DNA of 62,813 bases. Origin: Candidatus Saccharimonadota bacterium. GTDB taxonomy: Bacteria > Patescibacteriota > Saccharimonadia > Saccharimonadales > Saccharimonadaceae. Of the stretch, positions 10,882 through 61,987 are shown in pieces (positions within the stretch are counted from its first letter, which is position 1; each line of letters opens with the position of its first letter). The notes beneath the pieces are model-generated. The model searched no databases, was not told the DNA's origin, and saw nothing but the letters and a program-made list of their open reading frames with translations. The DNA is taken from NCBI GenBank assembly GCA_009787015.1, contig WRGU01000051.1:1-62813 (forward strand), read 5' to 3'. Made by a program: the position numbers and the translations under genes.

Positions 10882-10924
10882 AATACATATTGACAAGTCG
10901 TCCAATCTGTGATACACTGTTCTC

Positions 10925-10965
10925 GTGATCGTATAAGGTCATGGGATTGTTAGGTGTTGGGTTTT
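10925..10965 (+). ncRNA. Candidate small RNA (module S, subtype 2, copy 1)
   Basis: TTGACA (10890..10895), 17 nt, TG-A-TACACT (10913..10918). Hairpin CTCGTGATC/GGTCATGGG (10922..10945), tail ATTGTTAGGTGTTGGG. About 88% identical to 55820..55891. Confidence 0.45.
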
Positions 10966-11061
10966 GTCATTCTCGGGCTTGTCCCGGGAATCCATGGCAC
11001 TTGTCATCCTGAACTTGTTTCAGGATCTGTAAAATAGATTCCGCAACAAGTGCGGAATGAC
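10966..11061. repeat. Cluster of three family B GTCAT-hairpin units
   Basis: 10966..10993 (ATTCTCGGG/CCCGGGAAT), 11003..11029 (ATCCTGAA/TTCAGGAT) and inverted 11036..11061 (ATTCCGC/GCGGAAT). Stems differ in sequence but stay paired. Confidence 0.8.
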
Positions 11062-17599: not shown

Positions 17600-18114
17600 C
17601 AATATTCGTTTGGGTGTTTTGCGTGATCGCCGGTCTAATTATCGTGGTCATGGGCATTGGAGTATTATGCGGCGGTGCGCCGTTTGTGCCGACGCGGCGC
17701 GAATGGATTGACGAGGCGCTGAAATTGGCGCAAGTCGGCAAAAATGACGTACTGGTCGATTTGGGATCAGGCAACGGCGAAGTTTTGCGCATGGCAATCA
17801 AACACGGCGCGAAACGGGCGGTCGGTTATGAAATCAACCCGCTTTTGGCGTGTTGGTCGCGCGTGCGTCTAAAAAAACTTGGCGAGAAAATCGAAATTAG
17901 GAGCAAGGATTTTTTTCGCACAAATCTGCCGAATGATACGACGGTGATTTACTTATTCCAAGTCGACAAAGTTCTCAAAAAAATTCCAGAGTTTTTATTG
18001 CAACAAAAAGCACATTTAAAGGCGGCAAAATTGCGCGTCATCGTGTTCGGTTTTAAGATCCCAGACAGGGAAGTAATTCGCGAATCAAACGGCATGCGAC
18101 TGTACGAATTTTAA
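17596..18114 (+). CDS. Membrane-anchored class I SAM methyltransferase
   Basis: N-terminal TM, VLVDLGSGNGEVL motif I; ATGA overlap with xseB. Confidence 0.6.
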   Translation: MTIFVWVFCVIAGLIIVVMGIGVLCGGAPFVPTRREWIDEALKLAQVGKNDVLVDLGSGNGEVLRMAIKHGAKRAVGYEINPLLACWSRVRLKKLGEKIEIRSKDFFRTNLPNDTTVIYLFQVDKVLKKIPEFLLQQKAHLKAAKLRVIVFGFKIPDREVIRESNGMRLYEF

Positions 18115-18232
18115 CCAACACTAAATACGCGCGACTTGGTGATCGCTAAAACAGTATATCACACTTATGCTTTTCTGTCAAGTATTTCAGACATAACCAG
18201 CATAAATCAGTGAAATTTGCTATACTAGATGT

Positions 18233-24463: not shown

Positions 24464-24544
24464 TTGACTTTTTTATCAAAGTGTGCTACAATGGTAGGGT
24501 AGACCATGATACGGAGGGCTTCGGTTCGCCGTATTTTTGTTTTA
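24464..24544 (+). promoter_or_regulatory. Promoter followed at about +10 by a terminator-like UUCG hairpin (attenuator or short RNA) upstream of a sortase gene
   Basis: TTGACT (24464..24469), 17 nt, TGTGC-TACAAT (24487..24492). Hairpin ATACGGAGGGC-TTCG-GTTCGCCGTAT (24509..24534), then TTTTGTTTTA. Confidence 0.55.
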
Positions 24545-27341: not shown

Positions 27342-27404
27342 GGAAGCAGAGCGCCTCTTTTGGGCGCACTTGACAAATTAAAGTGCTTGTGCTATACTGT
27401 CTAC

Positions 27405-27440
27405 ACGCGACCACCATATCGCGTGTGTTTAGTGTTGGCA
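27405..27440 (+). ncRNA. Candidate small/antisense RNA (module S, subtype 1, copy 1)
   Basis: TTGACA (27370..27375), 17 nt, TGTGC-TATACT (27393..27398). Perfect 8-bp hairpin ACACGCGA/TCGCGTGT (27403..27426), tail GTTTAGTGTTGG. No same-strand gene downstream; it runs into the ftsX 3' end. Confidence 0.45.
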
Positions 27441-27444
27441 AAAA

Positions 27445-42869: not shown

Positions 42870-42954
42870 TGGTGGGCGAGGAGGGAATCGAACCCTCAAT
42901 CCCGGAGGAACACGATTTTGAGTCGTGCGCGTATACCAGTTCCGCCACTCGCCC
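42870..42954 (-). tRNA. tRNA-Leu (anticodon CAA)
   Basis: Cloverleaf read by eye: GGGCGAG acceptor, anticodon loop CTCAAAA, long variable arm, GGTTCGATTCC T-arm, encoded CCA. Confidence 0.85.
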
Positions 42955-52060: not shown

Positions 52061-52135
52061 GGTCTCATCGTCTAACGGTTAGGACATCAGGTTCTCATCC
52101 TGACAATTCGGGTTCGATTCCCGGTGAGATCACCA
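52061..52135 (+). tRNA. tRNA-Glu (anticodon CTC)
   Basis: GGTCTCA acceptor, TCGTCTAACGGTTAGGACA D-arm, anticodon loop TTCTCAT, GGTTCGATTCC T-arm, encoded CCA. Confidence 0.85.
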
Positions 52136-54450: not shown

Positions 54451-55836
54451 ATGAAAACAATGGATGAAATAATTGCATTTTGCAAACGGCGCGGATTTAT
54501 TTATCAGGGTTCGGAAATTTACGGCGGGGAAGCCGGTCTGTATGATTTCGGACCGTATGGCGTGGAGCTGTTGAATAATATCAAGAAAGCTTGGTGGCGA
54601 TCGAATGTTCAACTAAAATCGAACTATGTTGGTTTAGATTCGGCGATGTTCAAGAATCCAAAAACTTGGGTGGCGAGCGGGCATGTCGGCGGGTTCGCCG
54701 ATCCACTGTCGGAATGCAAGAACTGCCATACGCGTATTCGCGTCGACAAGGAACTCGCGAAAATCAATGTCGCGGCGGACGAAAAAATGTCGGAAAAAGA
54801 ATTACAAGAAATTTTTGACGCCCATAAATCACAGATCAAGTGTCCGAGTTGCGGCGAGAAAACTTGGACCGAACCCAAAATGTTCAATTTGTTGGTTAAA
54901 TCGAACCTGGGCGATTTCACCGAACAAAACGACGCGCCGGTTTATTTGCCGGGCGAGGCGTGCCAGGGGATTTACCTGAATTACAAAAATATCGTTGATA
55001 CATGTCGGGTCAAAGTCCCATTCGGTGTGGCGCAAATCGGCAAAGCCTTTCGCAACGAAATCAGCCCGCGCAACTTTCTCTTTCGTTGTCGCGAATTTGA
55101 ACAGGCCGATACGCAATATTTCGTTCGTCCGCACGAAAACGAAGAGCCGTACCAGAAAATCAAGCAAGAACGCATGGATTGGTATGTGGGTCTCGGCGTC
55201 AATCCGGAAAATCTACGGTTCAAACAACACGAACATTTGGTTTTTTACGCCAACGACGCGTGGGATATCGAATATAATTTCCCATCGTATGGTTTCGACG
55301 AATTAGAAGGCATTCACGATCGCACTGATTACGATTTGACTCAACATATGAAATATTCCGGCACAGATTTGAATTACACCGATCCCGGCAGCGGCGAAAA
55401 ATACATTCCGTGGATTTTGGAAACTTCGGTTGGGCTGGGACGCATGTTTTTGACCTTTTTGTGCGATGCGTATACGGTCGAAAGAGCTGGCGACGGCGAA
55501 CGCGTGGTTTTAAAACTCGACCCGGAACTAGCGCCGATTAAAGCGGCAGTTTTTCCACTCCTCAAAAACAAACCGGAGTTGGTCGCAAAAGCCCGCGAAA
55601 TTTACGACATGCTGTCACAGAAAATGATGTGCGAATTCGACGACAACGGCAACATCGGCAAACGCTATCGCCGCCAGGACGAAATCGGCACGCCGTCGTG
55701 CGTCGTCGTGGATTTCGACACCCTCGACGAAACCTCGCCGAATTTCGGCACCGTCGCGGTGCGTAATCGCGACACGATGGAGCAGGTGAGGGTGAAAATC
55801 GACGAACTATCGGAAATACTTGACAGATTAGCATAA
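54451..55836 (+). CDS. glyQS: Glycyl-tRNA synthetase (alpha2 dimeric type)
   Basis: Class II motif 2 FRNEISPRNFLFRCREFEQ, motif 3 region, anticodon-binding C-terminus. Leaderless: TGC-TAATAT (54439..54444) + 6 nt. Confidence 0.9.
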   Translation: MKTMDEIIAFCKRRGFIYQGSEIYGGEAGLYDFGPYGVELLNNIKKAWWRSNVQLKSNYVGLDSAMFKNPKTWVASGHVGGFADPLSECKNCHTRIRVDKELAKINVAADEKMSEKELQEIFDAHKSQIKCPSCGEKTWTEPKMFNLLVKSNLGDFTEQNDAPVYLPGEACQGIYLNYKNIVDTCRVKVPFGVAQIGKAFRNEISPRNFLFRCREFEQADTQYFVRPHENEEPYQKIKQERMDWYVGLGVNPENLRFKQHEHLVFYANDAWDIEYNFPSYGFDELEGIHDRTDYDLTQHMKYSGTDLNYTDPGSGEKYIPWILETSVGLGRMFLTFLCDAYTVERAGDGERVVLKLDPELAPIKAAVFPLLKNKPELVAKAREIYDMLSQKMMCEFDDNGNIGKRYRRQDEIGTPSCVVVDFDTLDETSPNFGTVAVRNRDTMEQVRVKIDELSEILDRLA

Positions 55837-55854
55837 GTGTGATACACTGTTCTC

Positions 55855-55938
55855 GTGATCGGGTAAGGTCATGGGATTGTTTGCTGTTGGGAAAAATAGG
55901 CGCACACGAAACGCCAGCCTAAACGGCTTGCGTTTTTT
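55855..55938 (+). ncRNA. Candidate about 84-nt small RNA (module S, subtype 2, copy 2) with its own promoter and terminator
   Basis: TTGACA (55820..55825), 17 nt, TG-A-TACACT (55843..55848). Hairpin 55852..55875, tail ATTGTTTGCTGTTGGG, terminator stem 55910..55934 + T6. Confidence 0.55.
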
Positions 55939-55962
55939 CGCGAAATGTGCTATAATGTATGG

Positions 55963-57816: not shown

Positions 57817-57892
57817 CGGGGCGTGGCGCAGTTGGTAGCGCGCGCGGTTTGGGACCGCGAGGTCGTCCGTTCAAGTCGGATCGCCCCGACCA
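57817..57892 (+). tRNA. tRNA-Pro (anticodon TGG)
   Basis: CGGGGCG acceptor, anticodon stem CGCGG/CCGCG, loop TTTGGGA, encoded CCA. Confidence 0.85.
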
Positions 57893-57911: not shown

Positions 57912-57988
57912 GCACTCGTAGCTCAGCTGGATAGAGCGTCGGCTTGCGGAGCCGAAGGTCGTACGTTCGAATCGTATCGAGTGTACCA
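57912..57988 (+). tRNA. tRNA-Arg (anticodon GCG)
   Basis: GCACTCG acceptor (G1-U72), TAGCTCAGCTGGATAGAGC D-arm, anticodon stem TCGGC/GCCGA with loop TTGCGGA, TTCGAAT T-loop, encoded CCA. Confidence 0.8.
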
Positions 57989-61423: not shown

Positions 61424-61465
61424 AAAAAAAGACAACACCAAACACATACGATATGGTGGTCGATT
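61424..61465 (-). ncRNA. Candidate about 42-nt small RNA (module S, subtype 1, copy 2)
   Basis: Minus strand: TTGACA (61500..61495), 17 nt, TGTGC-TATACT (61477..61472), then GTCTGCAATCGACCACCATATCGTATGTGTTTGGTGTTGTC + T7. About 85% identical to 27370..27440. No same-strand gene downstream. Confidence 0.45.
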
Positions 61466-61523
61466 GCAGACAGTATAGCACAAGCGTTTTAGTTTGTCAA
61501 TATGTAAATCTTATGCTATACTT

Positions 61524-61555: not shown

Positions 61556-61987
61556 ATGCAAGATTTAGATGAGATTTTCCTGAAAAATATGCGAAAAGCA
61601 GGTTTAAGGGTGACCGAGAATCGGCGGGCGATTTTTCGGGTTTTGAATCAGGTCAATGAACCGCTGTCGATTCAAAAAATCGCGAGTTTAATCGCCGACG
61701 AAGCGCATTTTACGAGTATTTATCGTTCGGTCGACGCGATGACGCGTGCGGGGATTTTGCGGGTGGTGTCGCGCGGGTTCAAAAATCTGTATGAACTAGG
61801 TGAGATTTTTCGTCCGCATCATCACCATGCGACCTGCAAAAAATGCGGTGCGACGGTGCAGATTAACGACGAACGACTGGAAAAGATCATGAGCCTCTTG
61901 GCGCGCCAAGCCGGATTTCAAGCGATCGAGCACCATTTTGAAATCATCGGGATTTGTCAAAAATGCCAGGGAGATGTGGTAAAATAG
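61556..61987 (+). CDS. fur: Fur-family metalloregulator
   Basis: Winged-helix N-terminus (GLRVTENRRAIFRVL), HHHHATCKKCG .. CQKC metal sites. Confidence 0.8.
   Translation: MQDLDEIFLKNMRKAGLRVTENRRAIFRVLNQVNEPLSIQKIASLIADEAHFTSIYRSVDAMTRAGILRVVSRGFKNLYELGEIFRPHHHHATCKKCGATVQINDERLEKIMSLLARQAGFQAIEHHFEIIGICQKCQGDVVK

Follow-up and report, generated by a model that had tools for sequence, protein, structure and literature searches.

The stretch analysed here, referred to as the window, comprises 62,813 nucleotides (contig WRGU01000051.1 of the Candidatus Saccharimonadota assembly GCA_009787015.1) and carries several copies of a short unit made up of a promoter, a hairpin, and a G/U-rich tail. 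One copy, at 55820-55891, lies at the end of a glyQS-like open reading frame (ORF); this ORF, which ends at 55836, encodes GlyRS, its best relatives (74% identity) being found in Saccharibacteria metagenome-assembled genomes (MAGs), and its stop codon (55834-55836) falls within the promoter spacer of the unit. A canonical terminator-like hairpin follows at 55910-55938 and probably also ends the glyQS-like mRNA, while the next gene's promoter (TTGCGT 55928-55933, 17 nt, TATAAT 55951-55956) overlaps its 3' arm. A sequence-only reading of the window had described the terminator as a stem at 55910-55934 plus T6, followed by the next gene's own promoter, and both are visible in the sequence. It had also pointed to a second copy of the unit at 10890-10961. 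Both loci read, as it described, TTGACA, a 17-nt spacer, TG-A-TACACT, GTTCT, a hairpin with the arms CTCGTGATC and GGTCATGGG around a GTATAA or GGGTAA loop, and finally ATTGTT(A/T)G(G/C)TGTTGGG. The likeness between them is far beyond chance; the figure then given, about 88% over about 72 nt, is too high, as 59 of the 72 bases are identical (82%), or 50 of 54 (93%) from the extended -10 element onward.

These two loci are part of a much larger set. The source genome consists of 857,924 bases in 51 contigs (a 95% complete, 858-kb Saccharibacteria genome), and a BLAST search of it with the 72-mer returned 23 matches. Scanning both strands for the tail with up to two mismatches yielded 179 matches, and those with a -10 element 36-41 nt upstream were taken as members. 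This gives 25 loci and, therefore, a family of at least 25 members, five of them inside the window, where the sequence-only reading had counted two; the locus C8:1-50 is truncated by a contig end. The proposal, made in that reading, of a candidate small-RNA family is supported. A combined -10/tail pattern matches the genome 20 times, versus 0 times when the pattern is read backwards. Three tail matches with a far or weak -10 (C20+4432, C21-7470, C26-7995) were discarded as chance, and a match at C39:16774, which falls in sequence coding for a hydrophobic stretch, is not a member. The density amounts to approximately one unit per 34 kb, and the three members between 10000 and 28500 are the three best promoter-like sites of that region. 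A scan of JGI metagenome contigs found 8 loci, all from this organism and 100% identical to contigs of this genome (G000), among which one is an extra member located on an unbinned contig of the same organism (L178). The members of the window are listed in Table 1 together with its other features.

Table 1. Family members and other features of the window. Coordinates on the - strand are given in reading direction for the individual elements.
Feature	Positions	Strand	-35	-10	Predicted +1	Hairpin	Tail	Remarks
Member A, type 1	10890-10965	+	10890-10895	TACACT 10913-10918	~10925	~10921-10946	TGTTAGGTGTTG 10948-10959	Tail followed by GGTTTT, then REP-like GTCAT hairpins (~10965-11060)
Member B, type 1	55820-55891	+	TTGACA 55820-55825	Extended, TGA-TACACT, ending 55848	~55855	55851-55876, 10 pairs	TGTTTGCTGTTG 55878-55889	Promoter matches 10/12 of consensus, with TG
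Member C, type 2	18112-18181	-	TTGACA 18181-18176	TATACT 18158-18153	~18146	GCGAU-CACCAA-GUCGC	TATTTAGTGTTG 18127-18116	Promoter 11/12, with TG
Member D, type 3	27370-27441	+	27370-27375	TATACT 27393-27398	~27405	27402-27427	TGTTTAGTGTTG 27426-27437	Promoter 11/12; top terminator-like site
Member E, type 3	61429-61500	-	61500-61495	TATACT 61477-61472	~61465		TGTTTGGTGTTG 61444-61433	Tail followed by TC + T7; back to back with + promoter 61494-61522
Terminator-like hairpin	55910-55938	+				Stem 55910-55919 with 55925-55934		T6 after stem; read from sequence
tRNA gene	42873-42954	-						
tRNA gene	52061-52132	+						
tRNA gene	57817-57889	+						
tRNA gene	57912-57985	+						

The promoter is a fixed part of the unit. 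As called by consensus match, TTGAC(A/T) and TGn-TAYAMT are present in all 25 members, and the spacer never departs from 17 nt. The notion of a self-contained unit with its own predicted promoter is supported, but the promoter is not special to it: to judge from the motif's occurrence, it is a variant of the general promoter cassette of this genome. The core AGTGTG(A/C)TA(C/T)A(A/C)TG is present at 55 sites in the genome, mostly ahead of ordinary genes, and also in relatives (40 sites in G011 and 17 in G005), with 0 sites in the same-genus genome G001 (70% complete); 20 of the 25 members carry its TAYACT-GT variant. The full cassette, about 40 nt long and near-invariant, reads TTGAC(T)6A-N3-AAGTGTG(A/C)TA(C/T)AATGGTA(A/G)GATG, with examples in the window at 24464-24492 and 55928-55956. 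As the start codon is often found at positions 7-9 after its -10, many of the mRNAs concerned would be leaderless. At 61472-61522, two promoters stand back to back with overlapping -35 hexamers (TTGACA on the - strand, TTGTCA on the + strand), one serving member E and the other the ORF at 61556-61987. A different type of promoter precedes the 16S rRNA gene (C14:700-760, -) and recurs at C49:31091 (-), the two having in common AAAAAAGTGTTGAC as upstream and -35 sequence, unlike the general cassette; the 16S gene extends past the start of contig C14, and rRNA pieces are spread over four contigs.

Downstream of the unit's promoter, the hairpins differ in sequence. Type 1, with 13 copies that are approximately 85-93% alike and often lie near contig ends, has a GTGATC/GGTCAT stem, type 2 the stem-loop GCGAT-CACCAA-GTCGC, and type 3 (C)GCGA-CCACCATA-TCGC(G), and there are singleton stems as well: GTGGC/GCCAC, ACGTGG/CCACGT, GTCGA/TCGAC (twice), and CCCGA/TCGGG. 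For the 22 distinct pre-tail sequences, the mean minimum free energy (MFE) is -8.9 kcal/mol on the promoter strand versus -4.0 kcal/mol on the antisense strand, the former being the more stable in 17 of the 22, and G-U pairs make up 42 of their 169 pairs. An MFE of -5 kcal/mol or lower is reached by 20 of the 22 family sequences, compared with 3 of the 43 other promoters of the general cassette that served as controls. These differences show what appears to be selection for the hairpin on the transcribed strand.

Pairing is also kept where the stems have changed. While a covariance model of type 1 only (R1) proved too specific, a second one, R2, made from types 2 and 3, recovers all its own members. 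In alignment A6, which was fitted to R2, 86.6% of 172 cells are paired, compared with 74.9 ± 2.0 in shuffled versions, and 28 cells have changed on both sides, compared with 10.8 (in both cases reached by 0 of 500 shuffles); controls with slid partners give at most 55% pairing. On a plain MAFFT alignment of all 25 members, RNAalifold predicted no structure, because MAFFT placed two stem groups out of register. In most members other than type 1, the stem core, as read from the sequences, begins on position 7 after the -10 or close to it; position 7 is the site of the ATG in the leaderless genes of this genome. In the MFE folds, the first paired position ranges from 1 to 10 after the -10, with type-1 stems starting at position 3.

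The third element, the tail T(G/A)TT(T/A/G)(G/A)GTGTTG, is nearly invariant while the stem sequences differ: a conserved stretch, predicted to be unpaired, is shared by paralogues with variable stems, although in types 2 and 3 it can also pair. From the predicted +1 to the end of the tail there are 30-35 nt, and directly behind it come at least 5 T in 8 positions in 16 of the 25 members and an A-rich stretch in 6 of 25. A transcript of about 84 nt had been proposed for the unit. The terminator after member B on which this length depends is present, but the length does not extend to the family, since that terminator-like hairpin follows no other copy and a T-rich run directly 3' of the tail is found in 16 of 25.

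A conserved tail that is also present in DNA may be read as a protein-binding site. Under this explanation, which we find improbable, the sequence T(G/A)TTTRGTGTTG would be a DNA operator situated 25-40 bp downstream of the start, the units being regulated by a factor or titrating it. Two exact copies of the tail 12-mer TGTTTAGTGTTG are present at C15:3336-3423 (-), within a 21-bp tandem duplication that overlaps the -35 of a gene for 329 amino acids. By eye, the product of this gene is winged-helix-like in an N-terminal segment and carries a phosphoribosyltransferase-like motif at the C-terminus, in the manner of PurR/ComF. This layout resembles that of an autoregulated repressor, and GTGTTGAC also precedes the spacer of the rRNA promoter. 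Nevertheless, C15 is the only extra locus, and chance matches to a 12-mer are not rare, at roughly 0.1 per variant by our estimate for the two strands together (1.7 Mb). GTGTTGAC is found 30 times in the genome, mostly inside genes. In addition, the motif is not palindromic, and an operator leaves the strand-specific, covarying hairpin at a fixed distance unexplained.

Several members contain a short hydrophobic ORF running across the tail, so that the units might encode very small peptides resembling type I toxins (MGLFGVG... in type 1, M(C/Y)LVL(S/A)FF... in some of type 2/3). This is very improbable: at least 8 members have no start codon (e.g., those on C12, C22, C25, C28, and C46, and the window member at 18127), the frame of the tail differs between types, similarity ends with the tail, and the leaderless GTG frame of copies A and B meets a stop after 3-4 codons. 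The absence of a conserved peptide, as argued from the two copies, is thus borne out by the whole family.

The genes around the units, according to our own ORF calls for all 25, stand in no constant relation to them. Twelve units lie directly after a co-directional gene, and in six of these cases the ORF reaches 4-24 nt into the unit's promoter. Eight others are antisense between two co-directional genes and convergent with the upstream one, whose stop is 1-10 nt past the tail in four cases and 36-187 nt past it in the other four; some of these are back to back with the promoter of the next gene (e.g., 61494-61522). Approximately six have a co-directional ORF 33-128 nt downstream. Within the window, member C is antisense between two + strand ORFs, and member D faces, in convergent orientation, a - strand ORF whose end lies 7 nt past the tail. 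Outside it, member C46:29229-29306 lies about 60 nt upstream of an apparent tRNA 5' end. Such varied orientations fit independent genes better than leaders.

The units with an ORF downstream are, for their part, what a cis-acting 5' leader or attenuator would require, including boxB-boxA-like antitermination or a minimal T-box-like switch in which the UGGUG of the tail pairs with a CACCA loop or with the 3' end of a tRNA. The hairpin loop of types 2 and 3, (C)CACCA(A/U), has its complement in the tail UGGUG (e.g., 18112-18152 and 61429-61471), and an alternative long hairpin reaching the U run can thus form; this longer U7 hairpin, which contains the tail, and the 5' hairpin are mutually exclusive. 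tRNAs that have a G1-C72 pair and an A as discriminator usually end in CACCA, and the rrn boxB-boxA layout likewise consists of a hairpin followed by a conserved single-stranded box. Even so, such a role has little probability: for at least 8 members the gene ahead is convergent, which leaves them nothing downstream to control; none of the 13 type-1 copies has the loop-tail complementarity; and after copy B come a strong terminator and a promoter belonging to the next gene. The boxA idea was rejected because the 16S rRNA leader on C14 has no tail-like motif.

A rival with more in its favour, which we consider unlikely but take seriously, is that the units make no working RNA and are either promoter-plus-terminator modules or a selfish repeat. 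The hairpin and U-rich tail would then end the upstream mRNA and abort the unit's own transcripts at once, and the copies, having spread by duplication or gene conversion, would be kept as punctuation or as neutral passengers. The 12 units standing flush behind a co-directional gene, six of them entered by its ORF, are where punctuation would be placed. A terminator scan flags the hairpin and tail as terminator-like in two of the five window members (55851-55876 and 27402-27427). The full 10-bp stem of type 1 needs an RNA begun upstream of the unit. The close likeness of the 13 type-1 copies and their position near contig ends suit a selfish repeat, and the tail with its T run resembles the -35 + T6 of the general cassette.

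Against these points stands the invariant GGTGTTG, which lies 8-14 nt past the stem and is not needed for termination, the clear terminators of this genome having plain T6 runs. The eight antisense members are wrongly oriented to terminate either neighbour, the perfect promoter with fixed spacing in 25 of 25 is unexplained if the transcript is irrelevant, and the hairpin types have diverged with their pairing kept. As regards mobility, similarity among type-1 copies runs from no further upstream than -42 to a median of +43 (maximum +89) relative to the end of the -10, for the 76 of 78 pairs that could be aligned. It ends at about 72-130 nt, and the unit is, therefore, not part of a longer mobile repeat, a possibility raised when it was first described; some pairs share an additional REP-like GTCAT hairpin. 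No terminal inverted repeats, target duplications, or longer repeat body were seen around the family copies, and neither RVT_1 nor OrfB_IS605 has a match in the genome.

We tentatively favour, at somewhat less than an even chance, a lineage-specific family of autonomous sibling small-RNA genes, with the common G/U tail as their working part. What leads to this reading is that the promoter is fixed and near-perfect, that the hairpin appears to be selected on the transcribed strand, that the tail does not vary, and that the units are independent of neighbouring genes; from these points we infer transcription of the units, its 5' and 3' ends, and a trans-acting function. The near-consensus sigma-70-type promoter with its extended -10 would initiate transcription at roughly base 7 after the -10. 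The resulting RNA would consist of a 5' stem-loop followed by a single-stranded, G/U-rich tail U(G/A)UU(U/A)(G/A)GUGUUG, and would end 30-45 nt from its start, either at the U-rich tail (inside it or immediately behind it) or at the U run that comes next; for copy B it may end at the canonical terminator, at about 84 nt. In keeping with such an end, types 2 and 3 can form a long hairpin that stops exactly at a U7 run, the canonical shape of a terminator. The 5' hairpin would be a structural, stabilising element, free to drift in sequence, and the shared tail would bind one common partner, either a C/A-rich RNA site or a protein.

Several results weigh against this proposal. With regard to structure, A6 was fitted to the very fold that it measures, its rows are related to one another, and it includes three spurious antisense rows and four in which the hairpin sits in an insertion. 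For types 2 and 3 alone, pairing (76.3%) is reached by 28 of 500 shuffles and the covariation score by 168 of 500, which is not above shuffles. The outer 3-4 pairs of the type-1 stem lie upstream of the predicted +1, so that the full hairpin would exist only in read-through RNA; type 1 also has no hairpin directly before its T run, which begins 14 nt from the stem. Two type-3 members are nearly without a 5' hairpin of their own (-0.1 and -0.8 kcal/mol). When the tail is included, these two form a long hairpin ending at the U run, as do two type-2 members with a UUGGUG tail. As to partners, Hfq was not found in the genome, and an ungapped genome scan for targets of the G/U tail, a search proposed with the original candidate, showed no enrichment: 163 complementary sites, some of them on the opposite strands of members themselves, compared with 89-228 for 20 shuffled tails.

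The distribution of the family weighs on the same side. No match to the combined promoter-tail pattern turned up in 30 relatives or in 400 other genomes of the order (256 genera), so that the family was found in a single species-level genome among 401. R2 gives only noise-level matches in the 30 relatives (E ≥ 0.0126), and none of the 12 inspected, including the eight best, has a promoter. The expectation that relatives might hold further copies was thus not borne out by pattern or by model. Since no relative has the family, conservation by descent cannot be used as an argument, and a young selfish expansion is possible. Downstream of the GlyRS gene, 11 relatives have no such unit and no conserved neighbour. 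Six 'ACTG' promoters in G003, G005, G011, and G015, as well as 31 of 112 promoter matches in G011, lead into ordinary leaders, tRNAs, or ORFs with no hairpin-tail unit.

Database searches offer no known family to which the units could be assigned. Rfam 15 returned only four tRNAs at gathering scores for the whole window, and 20 of the 25 members, searched at E ≤ 10, gave one meaningless match (11.2 bits versus a threshold of 40), so that the Rfam comparison suggested at the outset ends with the members matching no family. The titles and abstract openings returned by a full-text literature search mention no small or non-coding RNA family for Saccharibacteria or Patescibacteria.

Multi-copy sibling small RNAs with a shared unpaired motif are known from other bacteria, e.g., Qrr1-5 of Vibrio, the Yfr2 family of marine cyanobacteria, which also occurs in streamlined genomes, and the NsiR1 repeats of Nostoc. 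The present units resemble them in being short and paralogous, with their own promoters, variable stems, and a conserved single-stranded motif that is presumed to be the working part. They differ in being shorter (predicted 30-45 nt versus about 60-110 nt) and denser (at least 25 in 0.86 Mb), in having no sequence or Rfam tie to known families and no Hfq found, and in having been found in only one species-level genome. In GcvB-type RNAs, G/U-rich seed regions pair with C/A-rich mRNA sites, and the single-stranded G/U stretch could similarly be an interaction surface, although complementary sites are not enriched, there is no homology, and the predicted RNA is far smaller.

Other parallels concern the competing explanation. 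Like intrinsic (Rho-independent) terminators, the units have a stem-loop followed by a U-rich stretch, as reflected in the two flagged members and the long stem of types 2/3 up to U7. Unlike them, the stem stands at the very start of a transcription unit, the invariant G/U motif replaces a plain U run, and the type-1 T run is 14 nt off the stem. Correia elements of Neisseria, REP/BIME, and BOX are short dispersed intergenic hairpin repeats that can carry promoter activity. The family shares with them short dispersed hairpins, and its type-1 copies often precede REP-like GTCAT hairpins. It differs from them by the lack of visible terminal inverted repeats or target duplications, by being bounded by a promoter and a tail, and by hairpins that have diverged into several types while promoter and tail stayed fixed.

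Organisms of this kind have few regulators. If expressed, the units would offer a handle on post-transcriptional control or host interaction in a minimal-genome epibiont and would be, to our knowledge, the densest family of sibling RNAs. A bolder version, which we rate as distinctly unlikely, is a new class of abundant mini-RNA acting via its tail, to which at least 25 of the strongest promoters of an ultra-small epibiont would be devoted for RNAs of 30-45 nt. Such mini-RNAs might serve as a global sponge or guide for one RNA-binding partner, might act as a sensor pairing with the ...CACCA 3' ends of tRNAs, which the type 2/3 loops mimic, or might be delivered to the host bacterium. If they are only punctuation or a selfish repeat, they show a 0.86-Mb genome reusing one promoter cassette and account for several assembly breaks. 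Under either reading, annotators should note that the units are not two isolated intergenic oddities.

Further repeats were encountered in the same sequences. REP-like hairpins of the form GTCAT(T/C)-stem-(C/T)TTGT-stem'-(A/G)ATC(C), with varying stems and pairing kept, are found at 10965-11060 of the window and on many contigs; 8 of the 13 type-1 members have such hairpins behind them, and others stand alone. A second recurring REP-like kind reads GTCATTGCGAG...GAAGCAATC. Homopolymer tracts of G or C of at least 8 nt, mostly exactly 9, number 58 in the genome (40891-40899 of the window and 57 other sites), and composition would lead one to expect only a handful by our estimate. Many are located in the first 20-350 nt of ORFs, several at contig ends, and one inside a promoter spacer (C15:2293-2301). 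Phase variation at these loci is one possible explanation, an artefact of assembly or sequencing another.

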